Source: an uncultured Clostridia bacterium (GTDB lineage Bacteria; Bacillota; Clostridia; Peptostreptococcales; Anaerovoracaceae). From it: 35,398 nt of DNA. The translations under genes and the position numbers were made by a program. The stretch spans positions 1 to 35,398 of the forward strand of contig CALDNM010000001.1 of the NCBI GenBank assembly GCA_937915045.1, given 5' to 3'. The notes under the pieces are model-generated. The model was given only the letters and a program-made list of their open reading frames with translations, was not told where the DNA came from and did no database searches. Positions 2,248 to 25,095 of this stretch are shown in pieces. The number at the start of each line of letters is the position of its first letter. The first letter of the stretch is position 1.

Positions 2248-2425
2248 GTCTCTTCTCCCTTTTATATGTCCCGTTTTCGCGATCACTGCTATCAGTTTTT
2301 GATCTTTTTCTATCAGCTAGTATATCACGACGTAATGATAACAGCCACGGCCCCTTATCGGGATCGCGGCTGGATCACACGAAACTGGATCGCGCAAAAT
2401 CAGGAATGCCTGTCGCGTCAACTTT

Positions 2426-3678
2426 TCACTCCGTGAACTTGACCTGGTCCACGGCTTTCCCGCCAGGCCTGTACACAGTCACTTTGAGTTCGTCCGCCGA
2501 GACATTATAGATCTCATAAGTGTTTTGATATGTCAGGAACTTCACCGCGTACGAAGGCACCGGGTCGCCTTTTTTGTAGTAATGAGTCGGCTTGTATCCG
2601 GAGTCGGCCATCATGTACGTCACGCCATTGATCGATTTCGTGCGCATGTAAAGATGCTGGTGCCCGCAGAGGGCGAGCTCCACGCCTGAACTCGCGAAAA
2701 CAGGAGACCAGTTCGCCCTGATCCTCTTGTATATCGGATTGCCGTCATCCACCGCGGGATATGCCGGGTGATGCATATAAGCGATCTTCCATTTCGCGTC
2801 CGTGCCATTAAGATCTTTCTTGAGCCACGCGTTCACAGACTTCACCATCGCGTTCCACTTCTTCCTGCCCATGCGTTCCCTGCGCTTATCCGAAAGCAGA
2901 TTGCTGTTCAGCGAAACAAAATGACAGTCTCCGTAATCAAACGAATATACTTCCTCTTCAATCCCCTTCGGCCCGTTCTCATCATCTTGAGATAGACACT
3001 CGGCACCACCGGCGTCTCATGATTCCCGGACGTCGTCATCATCGGGATCCTCGAAAAGACCGGCATCGCGTTATTGAAAAAAGCGTTCCAGTCTCTGATC
3101 TCCGTGCTGACATTTATGAGATCGCCCGTCATCAGCGAAAATTTGATCCCCGGCTCCCTCTTATAGGCGGCCGCGATATCATCGCCCCAGGCGGCATAAT
3201 CCTCATTCCGATCCACGAACTGCACATCTCCGAGTGACATAAAACTGAAATCTCCGCTTTCGATCCCCGTCGTGAACGTCCTCTTCGCTGTCCATTTGCT
3301 GCCCGCTCCGATAATGTAGTAATACTTCGTGTCCGCGGTGAGTTTTGTTATACGCGCGCTGTATCTGCAGTAATGCCCCTCGAGTGTGGTAGTTTTCTTC
3401 CCCTTCGTGAAGGAAGTCCATTTCCCGTCCTGATCGTAGTTTTTAGCTGCCGCGTACTTCACGTACATCGTGCTTCCGCTGCCTTTCCAGTTCACGTCTT
3501 GTGTAGTCTTCGTATCCCCGGACCAGCTCAGCGTTATCTGCGAAGCCTTCGTCTTCGGCGTCGAGGCCGCGTTCGCCTCGTTCGTGGCAGCATCCGCGCA
3601 GCCCGCTGTGACAAGAGCCGCGCAGATGACCGCCGCGATCATTACTGCCATTTTCAAATGTCTTTTTTCTTTGAACAT
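2426..3678 (-). pseudogene. Purple-acid-phosphatase-like metallophosphoesterase lipoprotein, interrupted by a 1-nt frameshift near 2975-2990
   Basis: Two adjacent ORFs (2908..3762 and 2426..2872) carry N- and C-terminal halves of one enzyme. Signal peptide plus lipobox (LVTAGC) follows the ATG at 3678. Motifs GDVQF, GDLIN and GNHE are in the upstream ORF; GHQH is in the downstream ORF. The downstream frame reads through upstream as ENGPKGIEEEVYSFDYGDCHFVSLNSNLLSDKRRERMGRKKW, so the frames switch around YLKMM/ENGP. Confidence 0.75.
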
Positions 3679-3694
3679 GATCTCGCCCTGTTTT

Positions 3695-5980
3695 TTATAT
3701 CCCGCTGAAACGCATAAGCCTGCTGCTGAATTTGAATTCGCCGACCCACAGATAATTCCCATCGTACGCGAGGAATGTCGGCACCGAAAGCGACCCGGCT
3801 CCCGCGATCTCTATGACATCCTTCCTTTCAGGATTGCTTCCCGGGATATCCGATGAATCGTAATAATCGCTGCCGTGTCCGAGATAGCACGAAACTTCTT
3901 TGCCCGCGACCGCGTCGTCGATGCTGTCCCACATAAGGACATAATAGTTGCTCGCGTCCGCGACCATAAGCCGGCCATCGCTTGTAATAACACATTCCGT
4001 CGCGTTGTTGAAGCTGCTGAACTCACCGCCTATCGTGTATCCATCGATAGTCCGCTTCGTGATATTCGAAAGATCACTGATATCGTATACGCCCACATGT
4101 TTGCACATACCTCCGTCCTCGCCTGTCCTCGCGACTGTCAGCACCTTGCCGCTGCTTGCGAGCGTGCCGCTGATACCATTGATCACAGCGACAGGCTTCG
4201 TGGTCTTGCCCGGTATCTTGCTGTAGATATACACCTTGTTCGTATTGCTGTCAGAAATGAAGAAATGATCGTCATCCATCGCGATGCCGTTTATCCCTTT
4301 CATTACTACTGACCCTATCTTGCCGCTGACAAGCGTGTTCCATTTCCTGCCTGTAGTCGGCAGCTTGTTCCAGATCATCAGACTGTGGTCAGTGGACACG
4401 ATAAGCTTCTGCCCTCTCAGGATCACGTCTGTCGGTGTCATGAGCGGATCCATGCTGTAGACAACGTCGGCCTTGACCGCCGAGGAGTCCGGGATATTCT
4501 TCCAGATCGAAAGAGTCAGATCGAACTCAGACACTGCCACCAGGCTCTTGCCGTCTGTCGCGACATTCGGGTTCTGGATCAGACCGTTCGTCAGAAGCGA
4601 ATTATTATTGATCGTCCCGCTCAGAGCGAACGAAGGATGTGCTGTTTTCTTCGTCGGCATACCCTTGAACGCTACTATTTTGTTGGCGTTATAGAGCGCC
4701 GCGTAAAGTCTCCCTTTCGCGTATAAGCACTGATTGAAGTCGCCTGTCGCGAAGTAGTAATATTTATTTTCCCCATTGTGCGATATCCCGTTTCCTATCG
4801 TAAGTTTCGGTTTTCTCAGAGCCGAAGCCGATTTCGGAAGCGATTTATATATGTAGAGCCGTCCTGAATGCATGAGCACAAGTTTGCCGTTCACTATGCA
4901 CCCGCCCGGCTGATCTCCGTCCATGGCGCACTGAAAATCCTGCGTATCGCTGCTGCTCTTCGGGAACGATGTCCAGACGCGGCAGCCTGTTCCGACAGAC
5001 ATATTGTGATCGCCTACCAGCAGATACTTTCCGTCAGACACGATCGTACGCGGTGTCCCGCCGGTCTCGATGACGAAATCAGCGCGCTGATCCGAGCTTT
5101 CCGGCATCGTATTCCACACTATCAGCTGCCCGGATCTCGTGTTTGTCACGACAAGTTTTTCTCCATTCGTCCATACCGCCCACGGCCACATTACGCAGTC
5201 ATCGCTGCCATCTCCGTACATCGAGATGGCGAAATCCGCTGCCTGCCCGCTGCTCGTCGGGATGGTGTTCCATACGAGTATCCTGTTATTGTGCGTATCC
5301 GCCACGTAGAGTCTGCCCTTCGCGGTCGCGACTCCGACAGGCCAGTTCATCTGCGAAAGGCCGTAACCCGCATTACTGCTTTTGAACCCCGTCTGTCCAA
5401 GGACTACCGACGGCGCTGCTGATTTGCTCGTCGGGATCTTATCGTAGATCAGGACGCGGTTGTTCCAGCTGTCGCACACAAAGAATCTCGTCCCGTCCGT
5501 GGCGATGCCGTTTGGATGATTGTAAGTAGTCGCGTTTTTCGCTTTGTTGATCCCGAAGCTGGAAAGCGCCAGATCGGCGTTCTGCCCGTTCGTGAAAGAA
5601 GACGTCACGTTTCCGGGCGCCACAGGGTAAGAGTTATTTTTATTTACAGTAACGGTGTATTTTGTATAGTCCTTCACGTGGACGTTACACGTGTATGTCT
5701 TCCCGCTCAGTTTCGCGCGGACTTTGGCCGTCCCGGCTCCGACAGCTGAGACAAGGCCTTTTTGGGTAACTGCAGCCACATTTTTATTCGATGATGACCA
5801 CTTCGGAGTCCTGCTCGTCCCTTCGAGTTCAAGCGGCTGACTGCCGCCGACATAGAGGTTTATTTTACTCGCGAGTGAAATAGACGCAGCGCTGACATTC
5901 GTACCGGCCGCGCAGGTGAAAACCAACGTCATGCATAACGCTAATATAGCAAATGCACTCATCTTCAGGATCTTTTTCAT
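3695..5980 (-). CDS. Secreted Big_2 (Ig-like) domain + NHL-repeat beta-propeller protein
   Basis: ATG at 5980 is preceded by GGGAGGA. The signal peptide ends in SAAS. There is a Big_2-like segment (KWSSSNKNVAAVTQKGLVSAVGAGTAKVRA). Repeated NHL-type motifs are present (CDSWNNRVLIYD, VADTHNNRILVWN, ISDSNTNKVYIYS). Confidence 0.8.
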   Translation of the reverse strand: MKKILKMSAFAILALCMTLVFTCAAGTNVSAASISLASKINLYVGGSQPLELEGTSRTPKWSSSNKNVAAVTQKGLVSAVGAGTAKVRAKLSGKTYTCNVHVKDYTKYTVTVNKNNSYPVAPGNVTSSFTNGQNADLALSSFGINKAKNATTYNHPNGIATDGTRFFVCDSWNNRVLIYDKIPTSKSAAPSVVLGQTGFKSSNAGYGLSQMNWPVGVATAKGRLYVADTHNNRILVWNTIPTSSGQAADFAISMYGDGSDDCVMWPWAVWTNGEKLVVTNTRSGQLIVWNTMPESSDQRADFVIETGGTPRTIVSDGKYLLVGDHNMSVGTGCRVWTSFPKSSSDTQDFQCAMDGDQPGGCIVNGKLVLMHSGRLYIYKSLPKSASALRKPKLTIGNGISHNGENKYYYFATGDFNQCLYAKGRLYAALYNANKIVAFKGMPTKKTAHPSFALSGTINNNSLLTNGLIQNPNVATDGKSLVAVSEFDLTLSIWKNIPDSSAVKADVVYSMDPLMTPTDVILRGQKLIVSTDHSLMIWNKLPTTGRKWNTLVSGKIGSVVMKGINGIAMDDDHFFISDSNTNKVYIYSKIPGKTTKPVAVINGISGTLASSGKVLTVARTGEDGGMCKHVGVYDISDLSNITKRTIDGYTIGGEFSSFNNATECVITSDGRLMVADASNYYVLMWDSIDDAVAGKEVSCYLGHGSDYYDSSDIPGSNPERKDVIEIAGAGSLSVPTFLAYDGNYLWVGEFKFSSRLMRFSGI

Positions 5981-6139
5981 CTCGATTCCTCCCAACAATG
6001 AATAAGAGAATGCTCCTGTGCCTCATACAAATATGGATGTGTGATTTGCTATATTGTACTATATTAACTGAATTTTCGCAATATTATTCAGCCCCGCGCC
6101 GCGAGGGCACAGGGCTTGCTGATTTCTGCTCTGTTTCAT

Positions 6140-6898
6140 CTATCTACTAGGATTTTTTATATAGAGCTCGCCCTCCGAATCATATCCGCTGAGCGTGTAA
6201 AGGATGCAGAGCTCGGATCTCTCATATGTAAAATCCGCCGTTACCGTTTTATCCGACATGCTCTCCGGCTCCTGGAAGCTGTATGTGAGCGTCCGTGTTT
6301 CGCCCGGGGAGAAGCCGTCCTCATTCGCGTAGCACGAGATCTTCTGCGGATCATGCGCGCTCGTATCTGAAATAAACGATCCCGAACCCGTAGTCACTAT
6401 AGTTTTCGTGCACTTATTATACAGCGTGAACGCGATTGAAGACTGCGCAGCCGCGTCAGCATTCAGCACGAACTTCGCTTCATAATACAAAGCGCTCGTA
6501 GCCTTAGCGTGGTCACTGATGCCTGCATAACTCCAGATAGTCTTTCCTCCGGAATATTTATATGCCTTCATTTTATAGTAATATGTTTTTCCGGCCGTCA
6601 GTTTTGTGCTTTTCCAGGAAGTCGTGCTTCCCTTTGTTATCGTTTTGACTTTCTTGTATGTCCCATTTTTCTTGGTCGCTCGATAGATCCTGTAACCCTT
6701 CGCCTTGGATACTTTCTTCCATTTGACCACTATCGAACTATTTGAATTCGCCAAAGCTGTCACGACAGGTGCCGCCGGTCTGCTTGCCGCCGATACATCT
6801 TTCGCGAGAAGCGGTGTCCACAGCATCGCCAGCGACACAACGACCGCCAGCATTACTGCACTGCCTGATCTTAGCCTTCTTCCCATTTTCTCGTTCAT
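6140..6898 (-). CDS. Secreted fibronectin-type-III domain protein
   Basis: ATG at 6898 with GAGGTGAGG RBS and a signal peptide. FN3-like segment: IVVKWKKVSKAKGYRIYRATKKNGTYKKV...GKTYYYKMKAY. Confidence 0.75.
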   Translation of the reverse strand: MNEKMGRRLRSGSAVMLAVVVSLAMLWTPLLAKDVSAASRPAAPVVTALANSNSSIVVKWKKVSKAKGYRIYRATKKNGTYKKVKTITKGSTTSWKSTKLTAGKTYYYKMKAYKYSGGKTIWSYAGISDHAKATSALYYEAKFVLNADAAAQSSIAFTLYNKCTKTIVTTGSGSFISDTSAHDPQKISCYANEDGFSPGETRTLTYSFQEPESMSDKTVTADFTYERSELCILYTLSGYDSEGELYIKNPSR

Positions 6899-7030
6899 AT
6901 CCTCACCTCATCTTCCGCGCTTTGCTAAATGATTTAGAGTAAGTATATCACGCGTCATCCCGGCATCATACACTCTTTCGTGTAGGCCGGCCCGAACAAC
7001 ACTAGCAATGGCACAAACTGCTTTTCCCCT

Positions 7031-7840
7031 TCAGCCCTCGTGCTGCTTGTTTCTCATTTCCTGCAGCGACTCTCTCAGATGCGCCCCGACTCTGATCACG
7101 CGGCGGCCCGATCTGTCCTCCGGAAATTTTCTGATGCATCTGGCGATATGCCGCTGGCGTCCGTTCAGATCCGCGGCCAGAGCGTCCGCGCGCTCGCGCA
7201 GTTCATCCTCGATCCCATTTAGTTTTGTCTCGAGCTGCTGAGGTTTATTGCTGATATTCTCATACGCCGCCTCTCCGCGCTCAGTGAATTCTTTTTCACT
7301 GTTTTCGATTTTCTGCAGTAATGCCGAAAGGCTCGCTTCGGTCAGTGCCATGTCCGCGCCGAGCATCCCTATGAACGCGAGCGCGACCGCCTCAAAGACC
7401 AGCGGAGGGACCTGCGACTGCACCCCAGACAGGACGGGGATCATCCAGCGAACGAGCGCGATACCGACAAGTCCGAAACAAACCGTTACTGGCAGGCAGA
7501 TACGGCCATTTATATTCAGCGGCATCTTGCTGTAATCCCACCACCTCGCGTGGAATCTCTTTTCGAGATAATACGACGTCCCGTACTCGGCGAACGCGCT
7601 GCCAACGGCGCAGATCAGGAACAGCTCCCACAGCGGCATGGACGCGGCAGTCAGCCAGTCCACACGCGTGAACAGAAACATCCCCACCACAACGCTGGCT
7701 CCGTAGATCGGGCAGATCGGCCCGAACAGGAAATCCCTGTTGGAAAAGTGTTTCTCCTTCGCCGTGCAATATATGGTTTCCCAGATCCAGCCCAGGAAAC
7801 TGAAGATTATAAAAAATGTTACGTACTGTGAAATAATCAT
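7031..7840 (-). CDS. CmpB-like ('putative ABC-transporter type IV', PF06541-like) membrane protein with coiled-coil C-terminal extension
   Basis: N-terminus FFIIFSFLGWIWETIYC...GPICPIYG is typical of that family. There are several TM segments. No SD, but a TATAAT lies 7 nt upstream of the ATG. Confidence 0.65.
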   Translation of the reverse strand: MIISQYVTFFIIFSFLGWIWETIYCTAKEKHFSNRDFLFGPICPIYGASVVVGMFLFTRVDWLTAASMPLWELFLICAVGSAFAEYGTSYYLEKRFHARWWDYSKMPLNINGRICLPVTVCFGLVGIALVRWMIPVLSGVQSQVPPLVFEAVALAFIGMLGADMALTEASLSALLQKIENSEKEFTERGEAAYENISNKPQQLETKLNGIEDELRERADALAADLNGRQRHIARCIRKFPEDRSGRRVIRVGAHLRESLQEMRNKQHEG

Positions 7841-7916
7841 GCGACCATTATACTATACTACTGCCATCCGCGTCATCCGCTGTTTGCCATTTATTGTTCG
7901 ATCTTTGACATGATCG

Positions 7917-8060
7917 TTACTTTTTCTTCTCGGCCACACGAACTACAGCCACAAGTATCACGCCAAGCAGAAGGCCAAGAGCGCACCAAAACAAAAGGCT
8001 CTTCCAGCCTATCACCATCAGCGCGAACAGGATGAATACTATTATAAAAAACCATTTCAT
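7917..8060 (-). CDS. Small (47 aa) two-TM membrane protein
   Basis: ATG at 8060 with GGAGGGG RBS. The peptide is hydrophobic: MKWFFIIVFILFALMVIGW...VAVVRVAEKKK. Confidence 0.45.
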   Translation of the reverse strand: MKWFFIIVFILFALMVIGWKSLLFWCALGLLLGVILVAVVRVAEKKK

Positions 8061-8112
8061 AGTGCCCCTCCGAAATACCTTAATACCTTGCGAACAAGAG
8101 ATCACTGCCCGG

Positions 8113-8170
8113 TCATAATTTTCTGATCCAAGAAATCATAATTCCCTGATCCATGAAGTCATAATTCCCT
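8113..8170. repeat. 23-bp tandem repeat, about 2.5 copies (TCATAATTyyCTGATCCAwGAAr)
   Basis: Copies at 8113-8135 and 8136-8158, plus a partial copy at 8159-8170. Read directly. Confidence 0.85.
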
Positions 8171-8191
8171 TAGCGTCTTTATTTTATTATA

Positions 8192-8399
8192 TAGTAATGG
8201 AGAAAATAGTGGGGCCTGGTTTTTACGCGCTCTTTCCGTGCCGCTGCCAGGAGAAAGTGTCTGAATGTCACAATGATTTCAACGTTTTCCATTTTGTAGT
8301 AATGGTGAAATAGTGGGCCTGGTTTTTACGCGCTCTTTCTGTGCCGCTGTCAGGAGAAAGTGTCTGAATGTCACAATGATTTCAACGTTTTCCATTTTA
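8192..8399. repeat. Tandem duplication of a ~104-bp unit (105 + 103 nt)
   Basis: Units 8192-8296 and 8297-8399 align with a few mismatches or indels (TAGTAATGG..GGCCTGGTTTTTACGCGCTCTTTC..GAATGTCACAATGATTTCAACGTTTTCCATTTT). Confidence 0.9.
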
Positions 8400-8463
8400 T
8401 TCCATTTTTCTCGTGCCATTCGCCATTGTTTCGGCCCTTTTGTCAGCTTATTTTCAACGTTTC
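8367..8463. repeat. 97-nt dispersed direct repeat, copy A (overlaps the end of the 104-bp tandem)
   Basis: 92/97 identical, by hand alignment, to 12083-12179 in the same orientation. Confidence 0.9.
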
Positions 8464-8568
8464 TAGGGCCTCGCTTTCAAAATACCGGTAAAAACGCCTG
8501 AAAACAGCCATGATACGGAATTTCAAAGGATCAAATCGCGCAAACTCGTTGAATTGACTGACATTACT

Positions 8569-8725
8569 GCCGACTTCCGCCTCAGTGTCAACGATCCTGC
8601 CCATGCCGTAAAGCAGTTACAGCAATTCACGACTTGACGCCGACTTCTGCCGACTTCACACCGACTTCACACCGACTTGACGCCAACTTGACGCCGACTT
8701 CCGCCTCAGTGTCAACGATCCTGCC
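8569..8725. repeat. Seven tandem ~11-bp units (8630-8705; CGACTT[C/G]AC[A/G]C) bracketed by identical 33-nt direct repeats (8569-8601 and 8693-8725)
   Basis: Units: cgacttgacgc, cgacttctgc, cgacttcacac, cgacttcacac, cgacttgacgc, caacttgacgc, cgacttccgcc. The 33-mer GCCGACTTCCGCCTCAGTGTCAACGATCCTGCC occurs twice. Confidence 0.9.
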
Positions 8726-8794
8726 TGCAACGGAAATCAGCGCATATCGCAATATAAGAAGCGCCATGTATATCAGAATATTCTGTGAACTGCA

Positions 8795-8823
8795 TTGACA
8801 CTGAAAATCACTTACTGTAAGAT
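8795..8823 (+). promoter_or_regulatory. Sigma-70-type promoter for the ammonia-lyase / CoA-transferase operon
   Basis: TTGACA (8795-8800), a 17-nt spacer, then TAAGAT (8818-8823). It lies about 60 nt upstream of the ATG at 8884. Confidence 0.55.
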
Positions 8824-8883
8824 GAATTTGATGGATGGCCGCACTGGTCAAAAACATTGGAATACACACGAAAGGAGCGAAAA

Positions 8884-9276
8884 ATGGATAAGAAGATCAC
8901 ATCGATGATAAGAGTCAGGATGTCGGCGAAGGACGCGCATTACGGCGGCGGTTTAGTTGACGGAGCTCACGTGGTGCACCTTTTCGGAGATGTCGCTACG
9001 GAGCTTCTCATAAAAATGGACGGCGACGAAGGGCTGTTCTGCGCGTATGACAATATTGAGTTCACCGCGCCGGTGCATGCCGGTGATTTTATCGAAGCGA
9101 CCGGAGAGATAGTCGAAGTCGGCAACACCTCCAGAAAAATGGTATTCGAAGCGAAAAAAGTCATCTGCCCGAGGCCGGACGTCAACGAGTCCGCGGCTGA
9201 TTTTCTTGATGAGCCGGTGGTAGTCTGCAGAGCCAGCGGCACATGTGTCGTTCCGAAGGAATTCAAAAGAAAATAG
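8884..9276 (+). CDS. Hotdog-fold aminoacyl-CoA ammonia-lyase family protein (3-aminobutyryl-CoA / beta-alanyl-CoA ammonia-lyase-like)
   Basis: ATG at 8884 with [27 protein letters not shown]...FGDVATEL...[27 protein letters not shown]...GNTSRKM.FEAKKV matches my recollection of Kal/Acl proteins. No search run. Confidence 0.65.
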
Positions 9277-9327
9277 CAGCAGAAACCAGATCCGGATATA
9301 TAAAAAAATGAGAGGAGACAGATCGAT

Positions 9328-11862
9328 ATGAAGGCACTGGATGGAATTAAAGTACTGGACTTCACCCACGCGCACGGCGGTCCGCTCGCCACGATGTACC
9401 TCGCCGACTACGGAGCAGAGGTGGTCAAGGTCGAGCCTCCGGGAGGCGAAGACGGCAGATCGCTGCCTCCGATGAAAAATGGCGGAAGCGGATATTTCGC
9501 GTATCTGAACAGGGGCAAAAAAAGCGTCTGCGCCGATCTCGATTCCGAGGCGGATCGGGCGTTCATTCTCGAACTCGTGAAAGAGGCGGATGTCGTCTGT
9601 GAGAATTTCAGTTATGCAGTAATGGAACGGCACGGCCTCGGTTACGACGATCTGAAGAAGATCTCTCCCGGCATCATTTACGCGTCACTGTCCGGCCCCG
9701 GGAGGAGCGGAAGCAAAAAAGAAATGAAGCAGATGGACGAGCAGATCTCCGCGCTTTCCGGAATGCTTGAGCGAACGGGCTACCCGGACAGTCCGCCTGT
9801 GGAACTCGGCATACAGCTCAGCTGTCAGACCGGCGCTGTCTATCTCGTCATGGCGATCATGCTCGCGCTGATCCACCGCAGGGAAACCGGCGAAGGTCAG
9901 ATGATAGATATTTCAATGGTCGATTCGATGGTCTCGATCATCGAGGGCACATGCGTCACCTACGCGCTCACCGGAGAGATCTATCCGAGGAGCGGGAATT
10001 CGCAGTTCTCGATCTCGCCTTACGATACCTTCAATATGAAGAACGGCGACGCCGCGGTGGCTGTCTGCACCGACGCGCAGTGGCAGAAATTCCTCGGCGG
10101 TCTTAAGATAGATGACATCGCCGCGAACGAAAAATATGCCAGCAATGAGCAGCGCGGTCTCGAGTACGACAACGGCCTGCGGGCAGAGCTTGCGGATCGG
10201 ATAAAGGATCTCGATCTTGACAGTTTCATGACGTCGATGCACGACAACGGCATCGCCTCAAGTCAGGTCTGCAGCGTTTACGACACGATGCGATCGGAGC
10301 AGATAAAAGAGCGCCGCATGCTGACCGAAGTCGATGATAAAAATGTCGGCAAAGTAGTAATGCCTAGCCGCGCGATCAAGTTCGGATCGGACACTGTCGG
10401 CAAGCCTTCGGGTTCAGGTCAGGATACCGAGCTATCGGGCTCAAGTCAGAGCACCGGACTTTCCAGTTCACCCGCGCTCGGGCAGGACACGGAATACTTC
10501 AGGAATATGATGCACACGCCGGAGCATATGGAGATGGCGGCCAGGATGGAGAGTGACGCAGCGAGCAAAAACGCGCAGGTATCAGGCGGCCCTGGCTCGA
10601 GCGGCGGTGGCGCTTCAGCATCCACTGGCGACGGCGCTTCGACAGGCACTGGCAGCGGCGATCCCGTGACATCCGGCAATCGAAAGATACTCGATGGCAT
10701 GACGGTCATCGATTTCACGCAGGCTTACAGCGGACCTTTTTCCACTATGCAGCTTGCGGATTTTGGCGCGAAGGTCATCAAGCTCGAACGATGCGGCACC
10801 GGCGATCAGTCACGCGAATGGTCACCGTTCCGCAAAGGTTACAGCGGTTACTACGCGGCGATAAACAGAAATAAACTCGGCATGACGCTCGACCTCAAAT
10901 CGAAGGAAGGTCTCGAGATCGCGAAAAAACTCATCGCGAAAGCAGACGTCATTACTGAGAATTTCAAGGTCGGAACGATGGAAAAGCTGGGGCTCGGTTA
11001 CGACGAAGTGAAGAAGATCAACCCATCGATAATCTACGCGTCGATCTCCGGATTCGGCCAGAGCGGGCCGCTGAAGGACCGGCCGGCTTACGATAATGTG
11101 ATCCAGGCGATGTCGGGGATCCAGGACATGACCGGGTTCCCGGATGAGCAGGCGGTGAGGTGCGGTTCGTCGATCGGCGACAATTACACCGGGCTCGTCT
11201 CGTCGATGGCGATCCTCATGGCTTACTGGAAAAAGCTGAACACCGGCGAAGGCGAACGCGTCGACGTCGCGATGCTCGACGCGCTGTTCGCGATGATGGA
11301 ATATCACATAATCAGCAAGACGCTGCTCGGCGAAGAGCACGTCAGAAGCGGCAACAGCGAAAAGGATTTCCTCGTCCCGTATGATCTTTACGAGTGCGCG
11401 GACGGATATTTCTCGGTCGGCGTTCGCGGCGATGAGCAGTGGAAAGCGTTTTGTGACGCTGTTGGTCTGGACTCGCTCCGTGACCCGCGTTTTGGCAGTA
11501 ACGATTCCCGCCGCGAAAATTTCGATGATCTCACTTCGATCATTTCGGGGTGGATAAAGAGTCGGAAGAAGGCCGAACTCACGGACCTCTTCACCGGCGC
11601 GGGCATCCCGAGCTCCCCTCTCTACGATGTAATGGATATCATGGATGACGAGCACACGAGGGAACGCGGCATGATAGTCACGATCGATGACCCGGGTCTC
11701 GGCCCTTACGAAGCCATCGCCAATCCGATGAAACTCGAAAAAGCCGGCGCCTCGTATTCCAAAGGCGCGCCGCTCCTCGGCGAAGACAACGAAAAGATCC
11801 TCAAGGAACTCGGCTGCATCGCCGATGAGATCACTGATCTCGCGCGCCGCGGGGTGATCTAA
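9328..11862 (+). CDS. Tandem fusion of two family-III (CaiB/BaiF-type) CoA-transferase modules joined by a low-complexity linker
   Basis: GAGGAG RBS. Module 1 begins LDGIKVLDFTHAHGGPLATMYLADYGAEVVKVEPP. Module 2 begins LDGMTVIDFTQAYSGPFSTMQLADFGAKVIKLER. Module 2 has the canonical Asp motif AYDNVIQAMSG; module 1 has MDEQISALSG. An S/G/T/D-rich linker is encoded at about 10390-10690. Confidence 0.85.
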   Translation: MKALDGIKVLDFTHAHGGPLATMYLADYGAEVVKVEPPGGEDGRSLPPMKNGGSGYFAYLNRGKKSVCADLDSEADRAFILELVKEADVVCENFSYAVMERHGLGYDDLKKISPGIIYASLSGPGRSGSKKEMKQMDEQISALSGMLERTGYPDSPPVELGIQLSCQTGAVYLVMAIMLALIHRRETGEGQMIDISMVDSMVSIIEGTCVTYALTGEIYPRSGNSQFSISPYDTFNMKNGDAAVAVCTDAQWQKFLGGLKIDDIAANEKYASNEQRGLEYDNGLRAELADRIKDLDLDSFMTSMHDNGIASSQVCSVYDTMRSEQIKERRMLTEVDDKNVGKVVMPSRAIKFGSDTVGKPSGSGQDTELSGSSQSTGLSSSPALGQDTEYFRNMMHTPEHMEMAARMESDAASKNAQVSGGPGSSGGGASASTGDGASTGTGSGDPVTSGNRKILDGMTVIDFTQAYSGPFSTMQLADFGAKVIKLERCGTGDQSREWSPFRKGYSGYYAAINRNKLGMTLDLKSKEGLEIAKKLIAKADVITENFKVGTMEKLGLGYDEVKKINPSIIYASISGFGQSGPLKDRPAYDNVIQAMSGIQDMTGFPDEQAVRCGSSIGDNYTGLVSSMAILMAYWKKLNTGEGERVDVAMLDALFAMMEYHIISKTLLGEEHVRSGNSEKDFLVPYDLYECADGYFSVGVRGDEQWKAFCDAVGLDSLRDPRFGSNDSRRENFDDLTSIISGWIKSRKKAELTDLFTGAGIPSSPLYDVMDIMDDEHTRERGMIVTIDDPGLGPYEAIANPMKLEKAGASYSKGAPLLGEDNEKILKELGCIADEITDLARRGVI

Positions 11863-11947
11863 AAGCAATTTTTCTGCTGTACACTGCAGATATTGGATCT
11901 CTTTTGATCAGAACAGCCTAAGAAAAGCAAATTACTTTCAGCAAGAT

Positions 11948-12037
11948 AATGCCCCGTGCCAACTTAGGCGCGGGTGGGAATCACCGGAACAACGGCGAAA
12001 GAAGCGGCAATGCCCCGTGCCAACTTAGGCGCGGGGC
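11948..12037 (+). repeat. Two copies of a 27-nt hairpin-forming repeat (AATGCCCCGTGCCAACTTAGGCGCGGG)
   Basis: Copies at 11948-11974 and 12009-12035. Each folds as GCCCCGUGCC/GGCGCGGGGC with one G-U pair on the plus-strand RNA. There is no U-tract immediately after either. Confidence 0.8.
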
Positions 12038-12082
12038 TATCTAGTGGCAATTTTTCGTGCCGTTCAATTTATCCTCCAAAAT

Positions 12083-12179
12083 AATGTCACAATGATTTCA
12101 ACGTTTTCCATTTTATTCCATTTTTCTCGTTCCATTCACCATTGTTTCGTCCTTTTTGTCAGCTTTTTTTCAACGTTTC
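12083..12179. repeat. 97-nt dispersed direct repeat, copy B
   Basis: 92/97 identical to 8367-8463 in the same orientation. Confidence 0.9.
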
Positions 12180-12338
12180 CGGACTTGCGAGATCGAAATC
12201 AACGTAAAATGACCCAAATTTGATCAAAAACATGCTCTGCGAAAAAGCAAAACGCTGTAAGTCGCATTTTTTTGTGACAATATTTGCTGCGCGAATATAA
12301 ATGGCACAAAACATGTCACGCCTTTCTTTTGGCCGGTG

Positions 12339-12962
12339 TCAGATATCCTGCTCCGCGGCCTCGATGCTTTCATATCCATAAAATCGAACTGTCACAGTCT
12401 GCTGCTTTATGAGCATATCATGATCGGCCAGCATGTCCCCAAGCAGTAATGCTATGGTCTCTCCCGAATATGTTTTGTATTCGCCGAGGCTGTAAGTACT
12501 GAGCGATGTTTCTCCATTTTCGTTATCCTTGACCGGCCGCATCCTCGATGCAAGTTTAGGGTATTCCCTGGCGAACGCTTCGTTCTGCTTACGCTCCATA
12601 TCTATGATCTTTTGGATGTTTCCCATCTTCTCCGCATTGGCACGCGGCAGTTTCGGCTCCAGGACATCATAATAATAAGCCGGGTCGGAATACTCCATCA
12701 TGTACGCGTATTTCTCCATCAGAAGATTACGCTCTTCCCTATCCGCTTCCTGAAGATCCGCAAGATACGATCTGTTCGTCCTTTCGCTTCGCGCGCAGAA
12801 ATTACTGTATCTCATGATATAAAATGTGCGCGCGTCATCCTGACAGAATGCGCGCCCGTCGATACCTTTGACATTGTCGAACATTGTCCATTCAATATCT
12901 ATGATCTTGTTGATGACCTTATCATTGCTCGTTTTATTTTGAATAAGATCTTTGATCTCCAT
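12339..12962 (-). CDS. DUF4125-like protein
   Basis: AAGGAG RBS. The sequence (IEWTMFDNVKG..GRA.CQDD..TF.IMR..) and its position directly after a DUF4037-like gene match the arrangement I recall for this family. No search run. Confidence 0.6.
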   Translation of the reverse strand: MEIKDLIQNKTSNDKVINKIIDIEWTMFDNVKGIDGRAFCQDDARTFYIMRYSNFCARSERTNRSYLADLQEADREERNLLMEKYAYMMEYSDPAYYYDVLEPKLPRANAEKMGNIQKIIDMERKQNEAFAREYPKLASRMRPVKDNENGETSLSTYSLGEYKTYSGETIALLLGDMLADHDMLIKQQTVTVRFYGYESIEAAEQDI

Positions 12963-12989
12963 TTTATTCTCCTTCCCCCATCTGAAAAA

Positions 12990-13925
12990 CTAATCGATAT
13001 CATATATAGCCGGAAGTCCTGCCAGCTGCGGATCTTTGATCCCCGCCATGATGTCCGGACAGTAGGCCTGCATGAACTGGTCATGCGTCTCGGCGAAACC
13101 CTGACGTACTATTTCTCTTTCGATACTTACGCAGATGTCCTCGATCATTTCAGTCATCCACGCTCCATCCTCAGATACGCTCATATCCACGAGCTTCATC
13201 AGTGAAGTCACAGTATCCTGTAATATAGTCAACTCACCTGCACGGCGAAATATCCATTTATAGAAGGGCGCGTACTCACGGTTCAGCAGAAAGATCGCCG
13301 ACAGCGCGGCTTTTACGAATTCATGCAGCGCCATCCACGCGGCCTCTTTTTCTCCGCGCTTAAGAGATCTTGGGAAATTGTACTGCCCGGACTGAGCCAT
13401 TACTGCCGCACGCGCCGCCAGTTTTTTGCGGAGCACATCCTCCGGATAAAATCCAAGAAGAGTTTCTCTGATTTCTGTGAACGTCCCTTCGGGATCGCGA
13501 AAAACTTTCCCGCTCGTGACGATCGCGAGATAGCGCTCCGGTATGCGGAACCAGTCCAGGACATTGCTCGGAGCACCCGGGCAGCCTATATATTTCCGGT
13601 AAAAGTCCTCTATCGTGATGACTCCAACGCGGGCCGCGCCTTCAGGTGTCTCGATCCGGGTCACGCCGCCATACTCAGCCGGCAGCCCGCGATAAGCTTC
13701 CTGCAGCTTTCCCCCGATATCACGCGCCGTTTTTTCAGTGATCCAGAAGCAGAATCCCGGCCCGAAATCATGATCTCTTGAGATCTCGTCATCGTACCCG
13801 AAGCACTCCGATCCCTCGCCCGCCAGACCCGCGGCAATGAGCGGCGCGTATTCACTGAACTCGCCGCGGAGCAGCGGTTCGCCGTATTCTTTATAATAGC
13901 CCTCTGCCAGTTCCATCCCATTCAT
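12990..13925 (-). CDS. DUF4037-like protein with pol-beta nucleotidyltransferase-type motif
   Basis: ATGA overlap with the upstream TPR gene. GLAGEGSECFGYDDEISRDHDFGPGF fits G-S-x(n)-D-x-D. Confidence 0.6.
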   Translation of the reverse strand: MNGMELAEGYYKEYGEPLLRGEFSEYAPLIAAGLAGEGSECFGYDDEISRDHDFGPGFCFWITEKTARDIGGKLQEAYRGLPAEYGGVTRIETPEGAARVGVITIEDFYRKYIGCPGAPSNVLDWFRIPERYLAIVTSGKVFRDPEGTFTEIRETLLGFYPEDVLRKKLAARAAVMAQSGQYNFPRSLKRGEKEAAWMALHEFVKAALSAIFLLNREYAPFYKWIFRRAGELTILQDTVTSLMKLVDMSVSEDGAWMTEMIEDICVSIEREIVRQGFAETHDQFMQAYCPDIMAGIKDPQLAGLPAIYDID

Positions 13926-14743
13926 GATTTTGCCTCTCCTGATTTTGCCTCCCGGACGATCTTCAGATTATTTTCGAGCATGTCGTAATATGGCGACCTG
14001 CCGAAATCTCTTTCGACAAGCTCCATTGCCTTTTGGTAATAAACGATCGAACCGTCCCAGTTTCCCCGGTAATACTCAAGCACGCCAAACGCGGCAGCCG
14101 CGTAAGCGTAATGGATATCCTTGTCGGCGAACTCCGTTTCGTATATCTTCATCGCCTCGCCGAGGCTGCTCTCCGCTTCGTCATACCGCCCCATATCGAT
14201 CTGGACTTCTCCCAGATTTATAAGGCTCGTCGCTTCTTCTCTTCTCGCGCCGGGGATCGTCCTGATGATCCTGAGCGACCGGAGCGCCGCGGCTTCAGCC
14301 TTTTCAAGCTCCCCACGGCTTCGATAAGCGGAACTGATATTGTCCTGTACCGCCGCCATATCATAACCGTTATCCTCGCCGAGATCCTCCAGCAATTTCT
14401 CACTTGTTCTGTACATTTTCAGAGCGGCCTCGAGGTCGTTGCAGGCCAGGTGTCCGTTAGCTGCGTTGAGCAGTGTGATCGCGTAATTATGCGTATCCTT
14501 TTGTCCTGTCTCTTCCAGTTTTTGCAGCGCTTCTTCATAAAGAGGAAGTCCCTGCTCATGCCTTCCGGCCGACCGGAAATGCGAAGCCAGCTCATTATCG
14601 ACCGCGATGATCATTGCCGTATCGTCCTCTTCGACCGCGGTATCACGCGCCCCCCGCATATACGCTTCGACTTTTCCGATGCGTTCCTTAGCGTACAATT
14701 CATCCAGCCCCTGATAAAATTCGCTGACGCTCATCTTTCCCAT
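13922..14743 (-). CDS. Tetratricopeptide-repeat protein
   Basis: ATG at 14743 with AAGGAGG RBS. It has repeated A..Y..AL...E..G 34-residue-like units (e.g. YAITLLNAANGHLACNDLEAALKMYRTSEKLLE). Confidence 0.7.
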   Translation of the reverse strand: MGKMSVSEFYQGLDELYAKERIGKVEAYMRGARDTAVEEDDTAMIIAVDNELASHFRSAGRHEQGLPLYEEALQKLEETGQKDTHNYAITLLNAANGHLACNDLEAALKMYRTSEKLLEDLGEDNGYDMAAVQDNISSAYRSRGELEKAEAAALRSLRIIRTIPGARREEATSLINLGEVQIDMGRYDEAESSLGEAMKIYETEFADKDIHYAYAAAAFGVLEYYRGNWDGSIVYYQKAMELVERDFGRSPYYDMLENNLKIVREAKSGEAKS

Positions 14744-14770
14744 ACCTGCCTCCTTGATCACGATTTGTTC

Positions 14771-16825
14771 TTACTCTCGTTCTATCCCGGCGAGTTCCTC
14801 GACGAGCTCGCACGCCCGGCTGATGCCGCTGATCGCGTTTTTGACTTTCACCGAGTCGCCGATGTTGTACACGCGCACGCCCTTCGCCGTGAGCTCATTG
14901 TACAGCGAATCGTTCGGTCTCGCGCCGACTGCCATTACTACAGTATCGCACGGTGCAGTAACGGTCTCTTTTATCTCGCCGTTTTCTTTCTCGCGGACGT
15001 CCAGCACTGCCTCGCCATTTTTGATCTCGCGCACTCCCGTGAACGGGTATTTTTTCACGCCCATGCGTCTGAGCGCCGCCATCACGGGCCACGCGGTGCC
15101 GGCCTCGAAGCCCTTCCCGATCTCGAGGATGTCGACGATCGTTATATTGCGCCTGCATGTATTCATCAGTTCTTTGATTTTTTCCGGAGACTCGTAACCG
15201 TACTGCATCATGTGGAAGACCTGCTCCGGCGACACCGCAGCTTCATCAGCGATGTATTCGGCTGTCTCGCATCCGACCGATCCGCCGCCGACCACGACGA
15301 CATTTTTGCCGGTCATGACGCGCTTGAGAAGTACGTCCTCCGCTTTGTAAACAGGGATGCCTTCTTCGATATCTAGTTTTATATTCGGCGCGGCGCCTCT
15401 TCCCGTCGCTGTCACGACGTAGTCGAATCCGCTTTTTTCGATCTCTTCCGCGTCCGCTTCTTTTCCGAGCACGACGTCCACGTTGTGTTTTTTGAGGATG
15501 TTTTCGTAGTAACTTATGATGGTCCTGAATTCTTCTTTATGCGGCGGGAGCGACGCGATGTATATCTGCCCGCCGAGTCTGTCCGCCTTTTCCCACAAGG
15601 TCACATCGTGTCCGAGCTCGGCTGATCTGAACGCGAACTCGCATCCTGACACACCGCCCCCGACGACGAGGATCTTGTTCTTCTTTTGTCTCAGCTTCAG
15701 GTCCTCTATATCTTTCACCTGGTACTCGCGGCCGACTCGCGCGTTCACGAGGCATTCGACCGGTTTGTTGAAGAACGCGCGGGCCAGGCAGCCCTGGTTG
15801 CAGGCCACGCATCTTCTTATGGTTTCCGGCTCGCCCTCTTCGGCTTTTTTGCACCAGCAAGGGTCGGCGATGTTCGGCCTTCCGAGGCTGACTATATCGC
15901 AGACTCCCGTCGCGAGCATCCTTTCAGCGACATCAGGGTCGTTGATCCTGTTGCTCGCCGCCACCGGTATGCTGACCGCGTTCCTGACTCTCTCCGCGAA
16001 TATATCGAATCCGCCTCTCGGGAGTTCACCGGTTATCTGCGGCACTTTCGACTCATGCCAGCCACCCGTCACGTTGATCATAGAGACACCCGAACGCTCC
16101 ATCTCGGCCGCGAACATTACTGCGTCATCATCTGTACACGAACCCGGCACGAGATCGTTCCCGGCGATCCTTATACTTAACGGATAATCGTCACCGACAG
16201 CGCCACGCACTGCCTTCATTAATGCTTTCGGGAATCTCACGCGATTTTCGAACGAGCCGCCATACTGATCAGTACGCGTATTCGTGAACGGCGACAGAAA
16301 CTCACAGATGAGATATCCCGCCGACGCGCTGATCTCCACCATATCAAACCCGCACTTTTTCGCGCGCGCGGCAGCGGCCGCCCATTTTTCGATGACGGTC
16401 TTTATCTCTTCTTCGGTCATTTCTTTCGGAGTCGCCCTCGAGTAACCGCTGTATATCGGTGACGGCGCGAGCGGCTGCCGGCCGTCGTTGCACTCGGGGT
16501 TCGCGTACCTTCCGCCGTGGAATATCTGCACCGCGACTTTGGCTCCGCGCTCATGCATCCCTTCGGTAAATTCTTTGTAACCCTCTATGACGCTGTCGTC
16601 CGCCATGCTCATCATGCTGTAAGTCGATCCATACTCGTCGAAATACGCGCCGCCTGTCACTGCAAGACCGATGCCTCCTTCGGCACGCGCCCAGAAGTAG
16701 TTATTGAAGCGCTCGTTCGCTTTTCCGTCGGGATTGTACAGAGTGTTCATCGCCGACATGAATACTCTGTTTTTAACTTCCATATTTCCGATCTTTATCG
16801 GAGAAAATAAGTGTTCGTAATTCAT
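14771..16825 (-). CDS. OYE-like FMN domain + FAD/NAD(P)-binding domain oxidoreductase (2,4-dienoyl-CoA reductase / enoate reductase family)
   Basis: ATG at 16825 with GGAGAG RBS; the ORF-track start at 16906 overlaps the upstream gene and lacks an RBS. MNYEHLFSPIKIGNMEVKNRV is a typical N-terminus. It has the Fe-S motif CVACNQGC and two Rossmann motifs (VVGGGVSGCE, VVGGGSVGCE). Confidence 0.85.
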   Translation of the reverse strand: MNYEHLFSPIKIGNMEVKNRVFMSAMNTLYNPDGKANERFNNYFWARAEGGIGLAVTGGAYFDEYGSTYSMMSMADDSVIEGYKEFTEGMHERGAKVAVQIFHGGRYANPECNDGRQPLAPSPIYSGYSRATPKEMTEEEIKTVIEKWAAAAARAKKCGFDMVEISASAGYLICEFLSPFTNTRTDQYGGSFENRVRFPKALMKAVRGAVGDDYPLSIRIAGNDLVPGSCTDDDAVMFAAEMERSGVSMINVTGGWHESKVPQITGELPRGGFDIFAERVRNAVSIPVAASNRINDPDVAERMLATGVCDIVSLGRPNIADPCWCKKAEEGEPETIRRCVACNQGCLARAFFNKPVECLVNARVGREYQVKDIEDLKLRQKKNKILVVGGGVSGCEFAFRSAELGHDVTLWEKADRLGGQIYIASLPPHKEEFRTIISYYENILKKHNVDVVLGKEADAEEIEKSGFDYVVTATGRGAAPNIKLDIEEGIPVYKAEDVLLKRVMTGKNVVVVGGGSVGCETAEYIADEAAVSPEQVFHMMQYGYESPEKIKELMNTCRRNITIVDILEIGKGFEAGTAWPVMAALRRMGVKKYPFTGVREIKNGEAVLDVREKENGEIKETVTAPCDTVVMAVGARPNDSLYNELTAKGVRVYNIGDSVKVKNAISGISRACELVEELAGIERE

Positions 16826-16886
16826 TTGACTCTCCATAACATCATCTAACAATGAAAATGCCGCCTGTGGGTTATTCAGCCGTAGT

Positions 16887-17156
16887 TTATTTATCTTTCC
16901 GCTCATCGATACGACTCCTTACTCTGTCAAATACTTCCGTCTCAAAAAACCGCGTATCATCAAATGAAGCCGCTTTATCCGCTTCATCCAATTTGATCTC
17001 AATATCACCCGTAAGTTCCGAATACTGTTCCAGACTTAGTACTACCATCGATCCATATCCATTCTTTGTTAAATATACAGGACTGCCTTCTTTTACTGTT
17101 GTCTCTATCTCCGAGAACTTATTCCTTAGATCAGAAACAGGTCTTATATTTATCAT
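16887..17156 (-). CDS. Phd/YefM-family type II antitoxin (no cognate toxin gene present)
   Basis: ATG at 17156 lies 9 nt after AAGGAG. MINIRPVSDLRNKFSEIETTVKEGSPVYLTKNGYGSMVVLSLEQY is a typical Phd/YefM N-domain. Confidence 0.7.
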   Translation of the reverse strand: MINIRPVSDLRNKFSEIETTVKEGSPVYLTKNGYGSMVVLSLEQYSELTGDIEIKLDEADKAASFDDTRFFETEVFDRVRSRIDERKDK

Positions 17157-17278: not shown

Positions 17279-17662
17279 CTAGCTCAGCTGTCCGTGTTTT
17301 TCGTAGGATGCTGTGCGGACGATATGGTTGTCGTCGTCCACGAATACGACCTTCGGCCGCAGTCCCGCGGCTTCTTCGCTGTCCACGGAGCAGTAACACA
17401 TGATGATCACGTGGTCTCCCGTCTGGACTTTCCTCGCGGCCGCGCCGTTCAGACAGATCATCCCGCTGCCGGCGTCGCCCGCGATGGTGTATGTTTCGAA
17501 TCTTTCGCCGTTCTCGACATCGACGATCTGGACCTTTTCATATTCCAGTATCCCGGCCGCGTCCATCAGATCTGTGTCGATGGTGATGCTGCCGACATAA
17601 TCGAGTTCGGCCTGCTTGACCACGGCCCTGTGTATCTTTCCTTTGAGCATTGTAAGTTCCAT
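17279..17662 (-). CDS. panD: Aspartate 1-decarboxylase
   Basis: MLKGKIHRA..., the self-processing site YVGSITID, and CLNGAAAR. Confidence 0.93.
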
Positions 17663-17722
17663 GATTTTCCTTCTTTATACTTTCTTGTCGCGCTTTATTA
17701 TTAAATTTCCTGATCGCGCTTT

Positions 17723-18580
17723 TTATTCGCTGATGAAATTGTCGATCAGTCTTGTCTTCCCGATATATACCGCGACCGCGCAGAGGAGCGGACCGTCCGC
17801 TGTTTCTATCGGCTCGAGCCCCGGCCAGCTTACTGCTTCCACGTAGTCGATCTTCGCGAGAGGTTCGCTCTCGATGACTTTGCGGATCGTTGCAGTAATG
17901 GCATCAGCAGTAACAGGGCTGCCCGAAGTGACCGCGCTGCCGAGCATCGCGCGGCCTTCACCAAGCGCCTTTGACAGTATCGTCGCGGCCGCGCGTTCAT
18001 TGGCACTGAGATAAGTATTGCGCGAGCTTTTAGCCAGGCCATCCGCTTCACGGATGCTCGGGCAGCCGATGATCTCAGTATCAAAATTAAGATCGCTGAC
18101 CATATGCATTATTACCGCGAGCTGCTGCGCGTCCTTCTGTCCGAAATACGCGCGGTCCGGCGTCGTGATGTTCAGCAGCTTGGTGATGACCGTGCAGACG
18201 CCGCGGAAATGTATCGGGCGAGTCCTGCCGCAAAGCCCTCCTGTGAGAGTCGTCATATCCACAAAAGATGAAAAATCATCATTGTACATTTCTGACGGCG
18301 CAGGATGGAATATCACATCCGCTCCCGCGCTCTCGCAGAGCTTCTCATCCTGATCGAGATCCCGCGGATAGCTTCCCAGATCCTCCGACGGGCCGAACTG
18401 CATCGGGTTCACGAAATCACTTACGATCACCCTGTCGTTACTGCTGACGGCGCGCTCGATGAGCGACTTGTGTCCCTCGTGCAGGAATCCCATCGTCGGG
18501 ACGAGTCCTACTGAAAGACCGGCCGCTCTCCATTCGCTGACTATGTTTCTTATTTCATCTATTTTTTCTGTGATCTTCAT
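17723..18580 (-). CDS. panC: Pantoate--beta-alanine ligase
   Basis: VPTMGFLHEGHKSLI (HxGH motif), 285 aa, located in a pan operon. Confidence 0.93.
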   Translation of the reverse strand: MKITEKIDEIRNIVSEWRAAGLSVGLVPTMGFLHEGHKSLIERAVSSNDRVIVSDFVNPMQFGPSEDLGSYPRDLDQDEKLCESAGADVIFHPAPSEMYNDDFSSFVDMTTLTGGLCGRTRPIHFRGVCTVITKLLNITTPDRAYFGQKDAQQLAVIMHMVSDLNFDTEIIGCPSIREADGLAKSSRNTYLSANERAAATILSKALGEGRAMLGSAVTSGSPVTADAITATIRKVIESEPLAKIDYVEAVSWPGLEPIETADGPLLCAVAVYIGKTRLIDNFISE

Positions 18581-18617
18581 TTTACGCCTTCTTTGTGTTT
18601 AGTATAATTTTTGTTCT

Positions 18618-20290: not shown

Positions 20291-20376
20291 GCGACCACCT
20301 CTTTCCGTATAAGGTGGCACATCATCATCTGATGCAGTTTCCTTTCAGAATACCGCTCATTTTTTCAGCCGCGGAA

Positions 20377-25082: not shown

Positions 25083-25095
25083 GATACTTCACCTC

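Follow-up and report, generated by a model that had tools for sequence, protein, structure and literature searches.

In an uncultured member of the Clostridia (Peptostreptococcales; Anaerovoracaceae), the gene for a 130-aa hotdog-fold protein is followed on the same strand by the gene for an 844-aa coenzyme A (CoA)-transferase that consists of two class III (family III) modules. The questions raised by this locus are what a double CoA-transferase does beside such a small protein and how the double chain came about. Both genes lie on contig CALDNM010000001.1 of GenBank assembly GCA_937915045.1, positions 1 to 35,398 of which were analysed and are called the window below; the coordinates of the features are collected in Table 1. 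The pair would constitute a two-step route from free 3-aminobutyrate to crotonyl-CoA, an interpretation that we consider to have about an even chance of being correct. A preliminary description of the locus, made from the sequence alone, had proposed that the pair activates a beta-amino acid and then deaminates it to an enoyl-CoA, and this outline is the best-supported reading of the data given here.

Products of the gene pair

The open reading frame (ORF) of the transferase, 9328..11862, encodes 844 aa and is uninterrupted by any in-frame stop. The Pfam family CoA_transf_3 (PF02515) matched the protein in two stretches with 740.4 bits, as compared with a cutoff of 23.3 bits, and all 366 profile positions are covered by module 2. 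Taken by itself, each half aligns over nearly its entire length with solved family III enzymes, including YfdE of E. coli (residues 1-368, E = 2.5e-61), human SUGCT (residues 444-844, E = 7e-71), and Frc; modules 1 and 2 are 36% identical to one another. The double CoA_transf_3 match and the YfdE and SUGCT matches of the halves bear out the claim that one chain of 844 aa includes two complete family III modules.

The nucleophilic Asp of class III CoA-transferases forms aspartyl-acyl anhydride and aspartyl-CoA thioester intermediates. Titles of PDB entries show this catalytic residue mutated or trapped in Frc (Asp169), CaiB (D169A), Rv3272 (D175A), and BbsEF (D178-CoA adduct). In residue-level alignments, D618 of module 2 (SSIGDNYTG) shares its column with the Asp of YfdE ('SLAD'), of Brucella Frc ('AMTD'), and of SUGCT ('AMTD'), and it maps by coordinates to residue 168 or 169 of O. 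formigenes Frc (1p5h). The corresponding residue of module 1 is Cys166 ('QLSCQTG'), and no Asp lies within ±5 residues of it. Thus, module 2 is predicted from the alignments to be the catalytic module with the sole nucleophile, and the site of module 1 is predicted to be dead. The preliminary description had placed the catalytic Asp in the motif AYDNVIQAMSG. The Asp of that motif is D589, which lies ~29 residues before D618 and has a counterpart, D137, in module 1, and the motif is therefore not the context of the nucleophile. The suggestion that the two halves are specialised holds, and the asymmetry is stronger than claimed, as module 1 lacks the nucleophile.

An AlphaFold2 model computed with 108 fused homologues as alignment had a mean predicted local distance difference test (pLDDT) score of 91.8 and a whole-chain predicted template modelling score (pTM) of 0.92. 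Only residues 359-373 and 420-449 fell below a pLDDT of 50. Residues 374-419 were modelled confidently as the C-terminal helices of module 1, including 'LGQDTE', the counterpart of the family motif LGEHT; hence the linker between the modules comprises ~30 residues (420-449), and what had been described as a linker of ~90 residues resolves into this segment and a separate loop of 15 residues (359-373). Each module superposes on solved family III monomers with template modelling (TM) scores of 0.92–0.95, normalised to the target. The whole-chain pTM fits a compact intramolecular pseudo-dimer, in which the two halves would presumably interlock. All PDB matches found by sequence and by fold have 456 residues or fewer, and no solved fused chain was among them.

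The 130-aa product of the first gene was matched by the NCBIfam equivalog model NF052388 (3-aminobutyryl-CoA ammonia-lyase, Kal) at 193.8 bits, as compared with a cutoff of 160; the only Pfam match was 4HBT. As controls, Kal P0130 from a lysine cluster gave 193.7 bits with the same model, and beta-alanyl-CoA ammonia-lyase Acl2 (PDB entry 4mtu, residues 9-130) gave 118.2 bits, which is below the cutoff. Acl2 is the only solved homologue of the window lyase (E = 7e-27). Very many proteins share 76-84% identity with the window Kal. Some of them are named Kal by their sources, and three that are on long contigs lie beside genes for lysine 2,3-aminomutase, Kdd, and beta-lysine mutase, or immediately beside a BKACE/Kce gene. 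Given the Kal-level score and the score of Acl2 below the cutoff, the substrate of the window lyase is very probably 3-aminobutyryl-CoA and not beta-alanyl-CoA, as judged from the profile comparison. Having passed the Kal model and matched the Acl2 structure, the hotdog protein sits with the ammonia-lyases, as had been supposed; of its earlier assignment to Kal or Acl, the first part stands and the second, beta-alanyl-CoA, is unlikely.

The two genes are separated by 51 nt, a ribosome-binding site precedes both start codons, and the putative promoter sequence TTGACA-17-TAAGAT is kept in L001, a relative locus. One alternative reading is that a sequencing error joined two genes, or that the cassette is a decaying remnant left dead after transporter loss. 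Such an origin might be suspected because the window has lost the EamA gene that L001 carries, repeats abound in the flanks, and the linker is of low complexity and includes a tandem repeat. However, the same 844-aa sequence, flanked by the same genes, is found on a second, independent contig of 13.4 kb, which comes from a fermentation metagenome. An 853-aa relative (92% identity) was found in two further samples and a 799-aa relative (58% identity) in another, each encoded by a single ORF that immediately follows a Kal gene. The 844-aa and 853-aa versions have linkers of unequal length with the reading frame kept, and the G+C content of the linker at third codon positions (0.66) resembles that of the modules (0.70 and 0.72). 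The promoter and ribosome-binding sites are intact, and the AlphaFold2 model is of high confidence. The hidden stop or sequencing error that the preliminary description had named as a possible flaw was looked for and not found; error or decay is exceedingly improbable, and an artefact or pseudogene origin of the fusion is effectively excluded.

The fused architecture had been implied to be rare. When 1.84 billion 50%-cluster representatives were searched exhaustively with HMMER, 10,515 matches had E≤1e-30, and 133 of the best 150 of these were of fused size (701-950 aa). Likewise, the best 120 matches in a 90%-clustered database were almost all double-domain proteins of 759-895 aa, from Chloroflexota, Nocardia, Rhodococcus, and others. 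With at least 133 fused 50%-identity clusters, and with one such protein, DddD, already characterised, rarity does not apply to the architecture as a whole. It does apply to the subfamily of the window enzyme, which makes up one 50% cluster (representative P0003), the next match being 34% identical.

The residues at the nucleophile position were read from a MAFFT alignment of 108 fused proteins, which was used instead of pairwise phmmer mapping over the 120 matches, as the latter was noisy for distant proteins. The module 2 column has Asp in 107 of the 108 sequences. In the module 1 column Asp occurs in 3/108, and otherwise Ser, Tyr, Phe, Gln, Cys, Glu, or Ala is found. A dead N-module would thus appear to be the rule for the tandem class III architecture. 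A rule that the C-module keeps the nucleophile and the N-module almost always loses it was not found stated in the open-access literature, and that fused forms so regularly lack a nucleophile in the N-module is a further finding. A single-chain pseudo-heterodimer of this kind would be a convenient object for asking what the dead half contributes.

Descent of the fused chain from split subunits

A scan of reference genomes brought up no conspecific genome, and the nearest relatives in it belong to Chakrabartyella piscis, Candidatus Allocopromorpha excrementavium, and metagenome-assembled genomes of an uncultured Firmicutes bacterium and of Syntrophomonas. Their best-segment identities to the window enzyme are 42-56%, the highest (56%) being that of a split gene pair. 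All of them carry two separate adjacent genes, for proteins of ~397 and 393-401 aa, and the genes are likewise separate in L090, a metagenome relative. In a tree of the halves, module 1 of the window protein, P0002, and P0003 was sister to the A subunits and module 2 of the same proteins was sister to the matching B subunits, the clades being congruent. The window transferase arose by fusion of a split A/B gene pair. The halves of P0004, a fused protein with 34% identity, group with other A and B subunits (those of L007, L008, and L029), and as these are different A/B groups, fusion happened at least twice.

Most split A subunits keep the nucleophilic Asp. Module 1 is 45% identical to the A subunits and module 2 is 58% identical to the B subunits, and the faster divergence of module 1 would fit a relaxed constraint once the nucleophile was lost.

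In L005, which has two split pairs, and in L006, each pair is followed by a gene for a BCCT transporter. The gene set of L004 (3360-9297), which includes, in this order, genes for an acyl-CoA dehydrogenase, a fused transferase, a BCCT transporter, a ferredoxin, and a thioesterase, is that of bbuA-F; its fused transferase is P0004, which has 792 aa and Glu at the nucleophile position of the N-module. By its architecture and relatives, the window enzyme fits best into the BbuB/BbuC-like heteromeric group that activates ammonio acids, as a member with a single chain. As a separate observation, an enolase-superfamily (MR_MLE) gene and a gene for a sigma54 activator lie upstream of the two A/B pairs of L005 (2097-13081; Chakrabartyella piscis), and this stretch looks like a betaine-catabolism island.

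BbuB and BbuC of Emergencia timonensis are class III transferases that are 30% identical, are both required, and co-purify as a hetero-oligomer (PMC8364193). They make gamma-butyrobetainyl-CoA, preferably with acetyl-CoA as donor, from which BbuA forms crotonyl-CoA by elimination of trimethylamine (PMC8364193). The likeness to the window enzyme, here one of architecture only, lies in two divergent class III modules that make up one enzyme, with 36% identity between the modules in the window; in the window, however, these are parts of one polypeptide. The chemistry predicted for the window is similar too, in that a short-chain acid bearing an ammonium group is activated and the next enzyme yields an amine and crotonyl-CoA. 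However, the partner in the window is the hotdog protein Kal, whereas BbuA resembles a flavin-dependent acyl-CoA dehydrogenase, and the leaving group would be NH3 from C3 in place of trimethylamine from C4. The window also differs from the bbu cluster in its gene content, as no gene for a BbuA-like acyl-CoA dehydrogenase, BCCT transporter, ferredoxin, or thioesterase was found in it. BbsEF (PDB entries 9fn0 and 9fol) is another heteromeric A/B pair of paralogous class III subunits, and module 2 superposes on BbsF-type chains with TM scores of 0.92–0.93; in this case the subunits are separate polypeptides and the substrates are aromatic or dicarboxylate. Heteromeric family III enzymes are already on record in BbuB/BbuC (PMC8364193) and BbsEF (9fn0), and they too speak against the implied rarity.

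DddD, a dimethylsulfoniopropionate (DMSP) CoA-transferase/lyase, has two CaiB domains at residues 1-416 and 439-821 (PMC7174347). Like the window enzyme, it is a natural single chain of two CaiB-like class III modules, and it acts on a beta-substituted propionate with a cationic leaving group, as the window enzyme would. It differs in that it carries out the elimination by itself, whereas the window has a separate Kal, and in that it sits in a proteobacterial DMSP operon. Only the C-terminal Asp of DddD is reportedly essential. No DddD-specific family was among the NCBIfam matches of the window proteins, and no ddd-type neighbour genes were found in the window.

The proposed two-step route and its rivals

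In the first step of the proposed route, the 844-aa pseudo-heterodimer would load 3-aminobutyrate with CoA taken from one of the pool thioesters acetyl-, butyryl-, or crotonyl-CoA. Asp618 of module 2 would be the only nucleophile and module 1 would supply the partner half of the interlocked dimer, so that the chain would have one competent active site. In the second step, Kal would remove ammonia from 3-aminobutyryl-CoA to give crotonyl-CoA and NH4+, and crotonyl-CoA would then join butyrate/acetate fermentation. The present analyses show the architecture, where the nucleophile lies, that the lyase belongs to the Kal family, that the gene pair is conserved, and that the transferase gene arose by fusion; we infer the acid substrate, the CoA donor, the direction of flux, and the intramolecular interlocking.

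The pairing of Kal with a class III transferase is found beyond the window. With the fused transferase it is kept at 92% and 58% transferase identity. A gene for a Kal homologue (51-61% identical) also closely follows that for a single-module class III transferase in 10 Syntrophomonas-type loci, taken from GTDB genomes and from metagenomes of digesters or fermentations, and in L055 (Anaerolineales). A gene for a BrnQ-type branched-chain amino-acid transporter lies between those for the transferase and Kal in 8 of the 11 loci; these 8 have intact flanks, and a ninth BrnQ locus, L012, breaks off inside BrnQ, ahead of the place where Kal would be expected. Genes for a CitMHS transporter, a 3-hydroxyacyl-CoA dehydrogenase (Hbd), and a thiolase often come next in the Syntrophomonas-type loci. 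This layout, with uptake, CoA transfer, deamination, and beta-oxidation enzymes, is the one that would be expected for a free 3-aminobutyrate pathway. In L104 (7308-8652; fermentation metagenome), three tandem Kal copies directly follow a single-module class III transferase. The Syntrophomonas-type transferases are 46-47% identical to module 2 and are more distant from it than the BCCT-linked B subunits; the partnership with Kal therefore arose independently in the two lineages.

Several points weigh against the 3-aminobutyrate route, and some of them favour an accessory role in lysine fermentation instead. In that case Kal would act on 3-aminobutyryl-CoA made by Kce, and the fused enzyme would replace AtoAD in acting on acetoacetate with butyryl-CoA or acetyl-CoA, the two steps being non-consecutive. 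The window Kal is 80-84% identical to lysine-pathway Kals (80-82% to those beside KamA, Kdd, and KamD, or beside Kce), and it could simply be the lysine-pathway Kal of the organism. The canonical lysine pathway also requires a CoA-transferase for butyryl-CoA:acetoacetate transfer (PMC3149608). The transferase, Kal, and BKACE genes of L055 are joined in one operon, and a thiolase gene follows in the Syntrophomonas operons. Moreover, no transporter gene adjoins the window pair, the EamA gene of the 92% identical relative being missing.

On the other hand, kamA, kamDE, kdd, and kce were all absent from the 35-kb window, and no kam, kdd, or kce gene was found in L001, L003, or L089. The 10 Syntrophomonas-type transferase-Kal loci have no BKACE/Kce gene, and most of them have one for an amino-acid transporter. 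The closest relatives of the window transferase are BCCT-linked and BbuBC-like, which suggests cationic or zwitterionic acid substrates. To our knowledge, no class III CoA-transferase uses acetoacetate, and this also counts against a role in the lysine pathway, which we regard as the main rival, although an unlikely one. The canonical lysine-to-butyrate pathway obtains its 3-aminobutyryl-CoA from Kce (Kreimeyer 2007, as cited in PMC4619459 and PMC3149608). The Kal of that pathway is of the same family as the window Kal, with ~80% identity and the same equivalog score; what sets the window Kal apart is that its neighbour is a class III transferase and that kam, kdd, and kce genes are absent nearby.

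The remaining points against the 3-aminobutyrate route concern its substrate. The sequence itself points to no particular acid substrate or CoA donor. BbuB/C refuse gamma-aminobutyrate and carnitine (PMC8364193), which indicates a narrow specificity in this clade that does not allow extrapolation. For this habitat, no natural source of free 3-aminobutyrate has been established.

The same logic might apply to another substrate, such as beta-alanine (giving acrylyl-CoA), 3-aminoisobutyrate, or another beta-amino acid. Kal and Acl are homologous, panD lies nearby, and the Act/Acl2 pair of Anaerotignum propionicum is a precedent, in which a CoA-transferase activates a free beta-amino acid and a Kal/Acl hotdog lyase frees ammonia to give an enoyl-CoA. 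Furthermore, the class III transferases of L016, L018, and L019 have more divergent Kal-like hotdog proteins (49-89 bits with the Kal model) as neighbours, and this suggests substrate diversification of the module. In L016 (9490-12408) and L019 (1655-9169) these loci include genes for an SSF transporter, a Kal-like hotdog protein (49 bits), and a split A/B transferase, in which subunit A has Gly in place of the nucleophilic Asp and subunit B keeps the Asp, together with an Fe-alcohol dehydrogenase and a sigma54 activator. This operon may be another module for CoA transfer followed by elimination, with a dead A subunit. However, the window lyase has the Kal-level score of 193.8 bits, like the lysine-cluster Kal, whereas Acl2, at 118 bits, is below the cutoff, and the window lyase is ~80% identical to lysine-cluster Kals; the predicted product of the window pair is accordingly crotonyl-CoA, as compared with acrylyl-CoA for Act and Acl2. 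In addition, panD belongs to a panBCD biosynthetic operon, and degradation of its product would be futile. A different beta-amino acid as the substrate is thus quite unlikely.

All of the single parts of the 3-aminobutyrate route and its chemical logic are already known, and single-chain family III transferases are common, with one characterised. What is new is the combination of a fused BbuBC-like transferase with Kal, as well as the recurrent module of a class III transferase and Kal, which probably serves free 3-aminobutyrate catabolism. A literature search of open-access text found no description of a 3-aminobutyrate CoA-transferase. Taken more broadly, a class III transferase and Kal may form an undescribed, self-contained anaerobic route from free 3-aminobutyrate to crotonyl-CoA that is independent of lysine fermentation and was assembled at least twice, with a single-module transferase and BrnQ in Syntrophomonadaceae and with a fused BbuBC-like transferase in the lineage of the window; the fused enzyme would then be a natural model, in a single chain, of the interlocked dimer in which one site is live and the other dead. 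This broader proposal is tentative and falls slightly short of an even chance. If true, it adds a small route from a beta-amino acid to butyrate to gut and digester fermentations. It would also mean that kal beside a class III transferase is no sign of lysine fermentation, which would affect the use of kal as a marker of the lysine pathway when metagenomes are surveyed for butyrate producers.

Surroundings of the operon in the window

Table 1. Position and strand of the features of the kal-transferase operon and of neighbouring genes in the window.
Feature	Position	Strand	Remarks
Sigma70-like promoter (TTGACA-17-TAAGAT)	8795..8823	+	10/12 consensus matches, ~60 nt 5' of kal; consensus match only
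kal, predicted 130-aa hotdog-fold 3-aminobutyryl-CoA ammonia-lyase	8884..9276	+	ATG start; ribosome-binding site AGGAG before ATG
844-aa single-chain class III CoA-transferase, fusion of A-type and B-type subunits	9328..11862	+	
Module 1, residues 1-419	9328..10584	+	Full family III fold without nucleophile; Cys166 at 9823-9825
Disordered S/G-rich loop in module 1, residues 359-373	10402-10446	+	AlphaFold2 pLDDT <50
Flexible G/S/T/A-rich inter-module linker, residues 420-449	10585..10674	+	pLDDT <50
24-nt tandem repeat in linker	10609-10660		Tandem Repeats Finder: period 24, 2.2 copies
Module 2, residues 450-844, predicted catalytic module	10675..11859	+	Asp618 at 11179-11181
97-nt direct repeat, upstream copy	8367..8463		95% identical to downstream copy
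97-nt direct repeat, downstream copy	12083..12179		95% identical to upstream copy
OYE (Oxidored_FMN) and Pyr_redox_2 flavoenzyme, 711 aa	14771-16906	-	
panD	17279-17662	-	
panC	17723-18580	-	
panB	18618-19445	-	
DUF2520/Rossmann reductase	19442-20320	-	Part of complete pantothenate operon 17279-20320

The kal-transferase pair is the sole credible plus-strand unit between ~1.4 kb and 26.5 kb, in agreement with the earlier remark that it is the only plus-strand operon in a long minus-strand run. In the window the 97-nt direct repeats flank this unit, and a further related stretch is present at 8264-8295. The same repeats occur in L001, the 91% identical relative, at 759-855 and 5343-5438, where they flank EamA-kal-transferase, and they may delimit a cassette or be a hotspot of recombination. 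For their 32-nt core, no exact match was found in JGI metagenome contigs.

The stretch 1040-2053 of L001 carries the EamA-family transporter gene, which encodes 291 aa and is divergent from kal. In the window this gene is absent, and ~120 nt of short repeats (8648-8770) are found where L001 has this gene. EamA genes also divergently adjoin Syntrophomonas transferases. A specific EamA partnership was considered and rejected, as the EamA proteins of L001 and of the Syntrophomonas loci are only ~20% identical.

Other repeats are present close to the operon. An 84-nt near-tandem repeat (8212-8295/8315-8398) lies in the upstream flank of kal, and a 48-nt repeat (8569-8616/8693-8740) with CCGACTTSA-like short repeats lies 5' of the kal promoter. 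A perfect 27-nt repeat (11948-11974/12009-12035), with a GC-rich hairpin inside, lies 3' of the transferase stop codon. An Rfam scan of 7800-12400 gave no match.

The preliminary description had pointed to panD and to an enoate reductase-like gene within 6 kb of the pair. Both genes are present, panD in the panBCD operon and the OYE/Pyr_redox_2 gene in a separate minus-strand operon (12339-16906) with TPR, DUF4037, and DUF4125 genes, a combination that is also found in L001 and L089. A functional link does not stand; no evidence connects the two genes with the kal-transferase pair, and they look unrelated to it. PanB is ~80% identical to its counterparts in named metagenome-assembled genomes, and by this comparison the host falls among uncultured Lachnospiraceae.

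Several ORFs of the window have no Pfam match, for example those at 25096-26562 and 8-844. Proteins of surface or secreted type, with NHL repeats, Big_2, fn3, and the Listeria-Bacteroides repeat, are encoded at 1369-7840 and 24219-26562.

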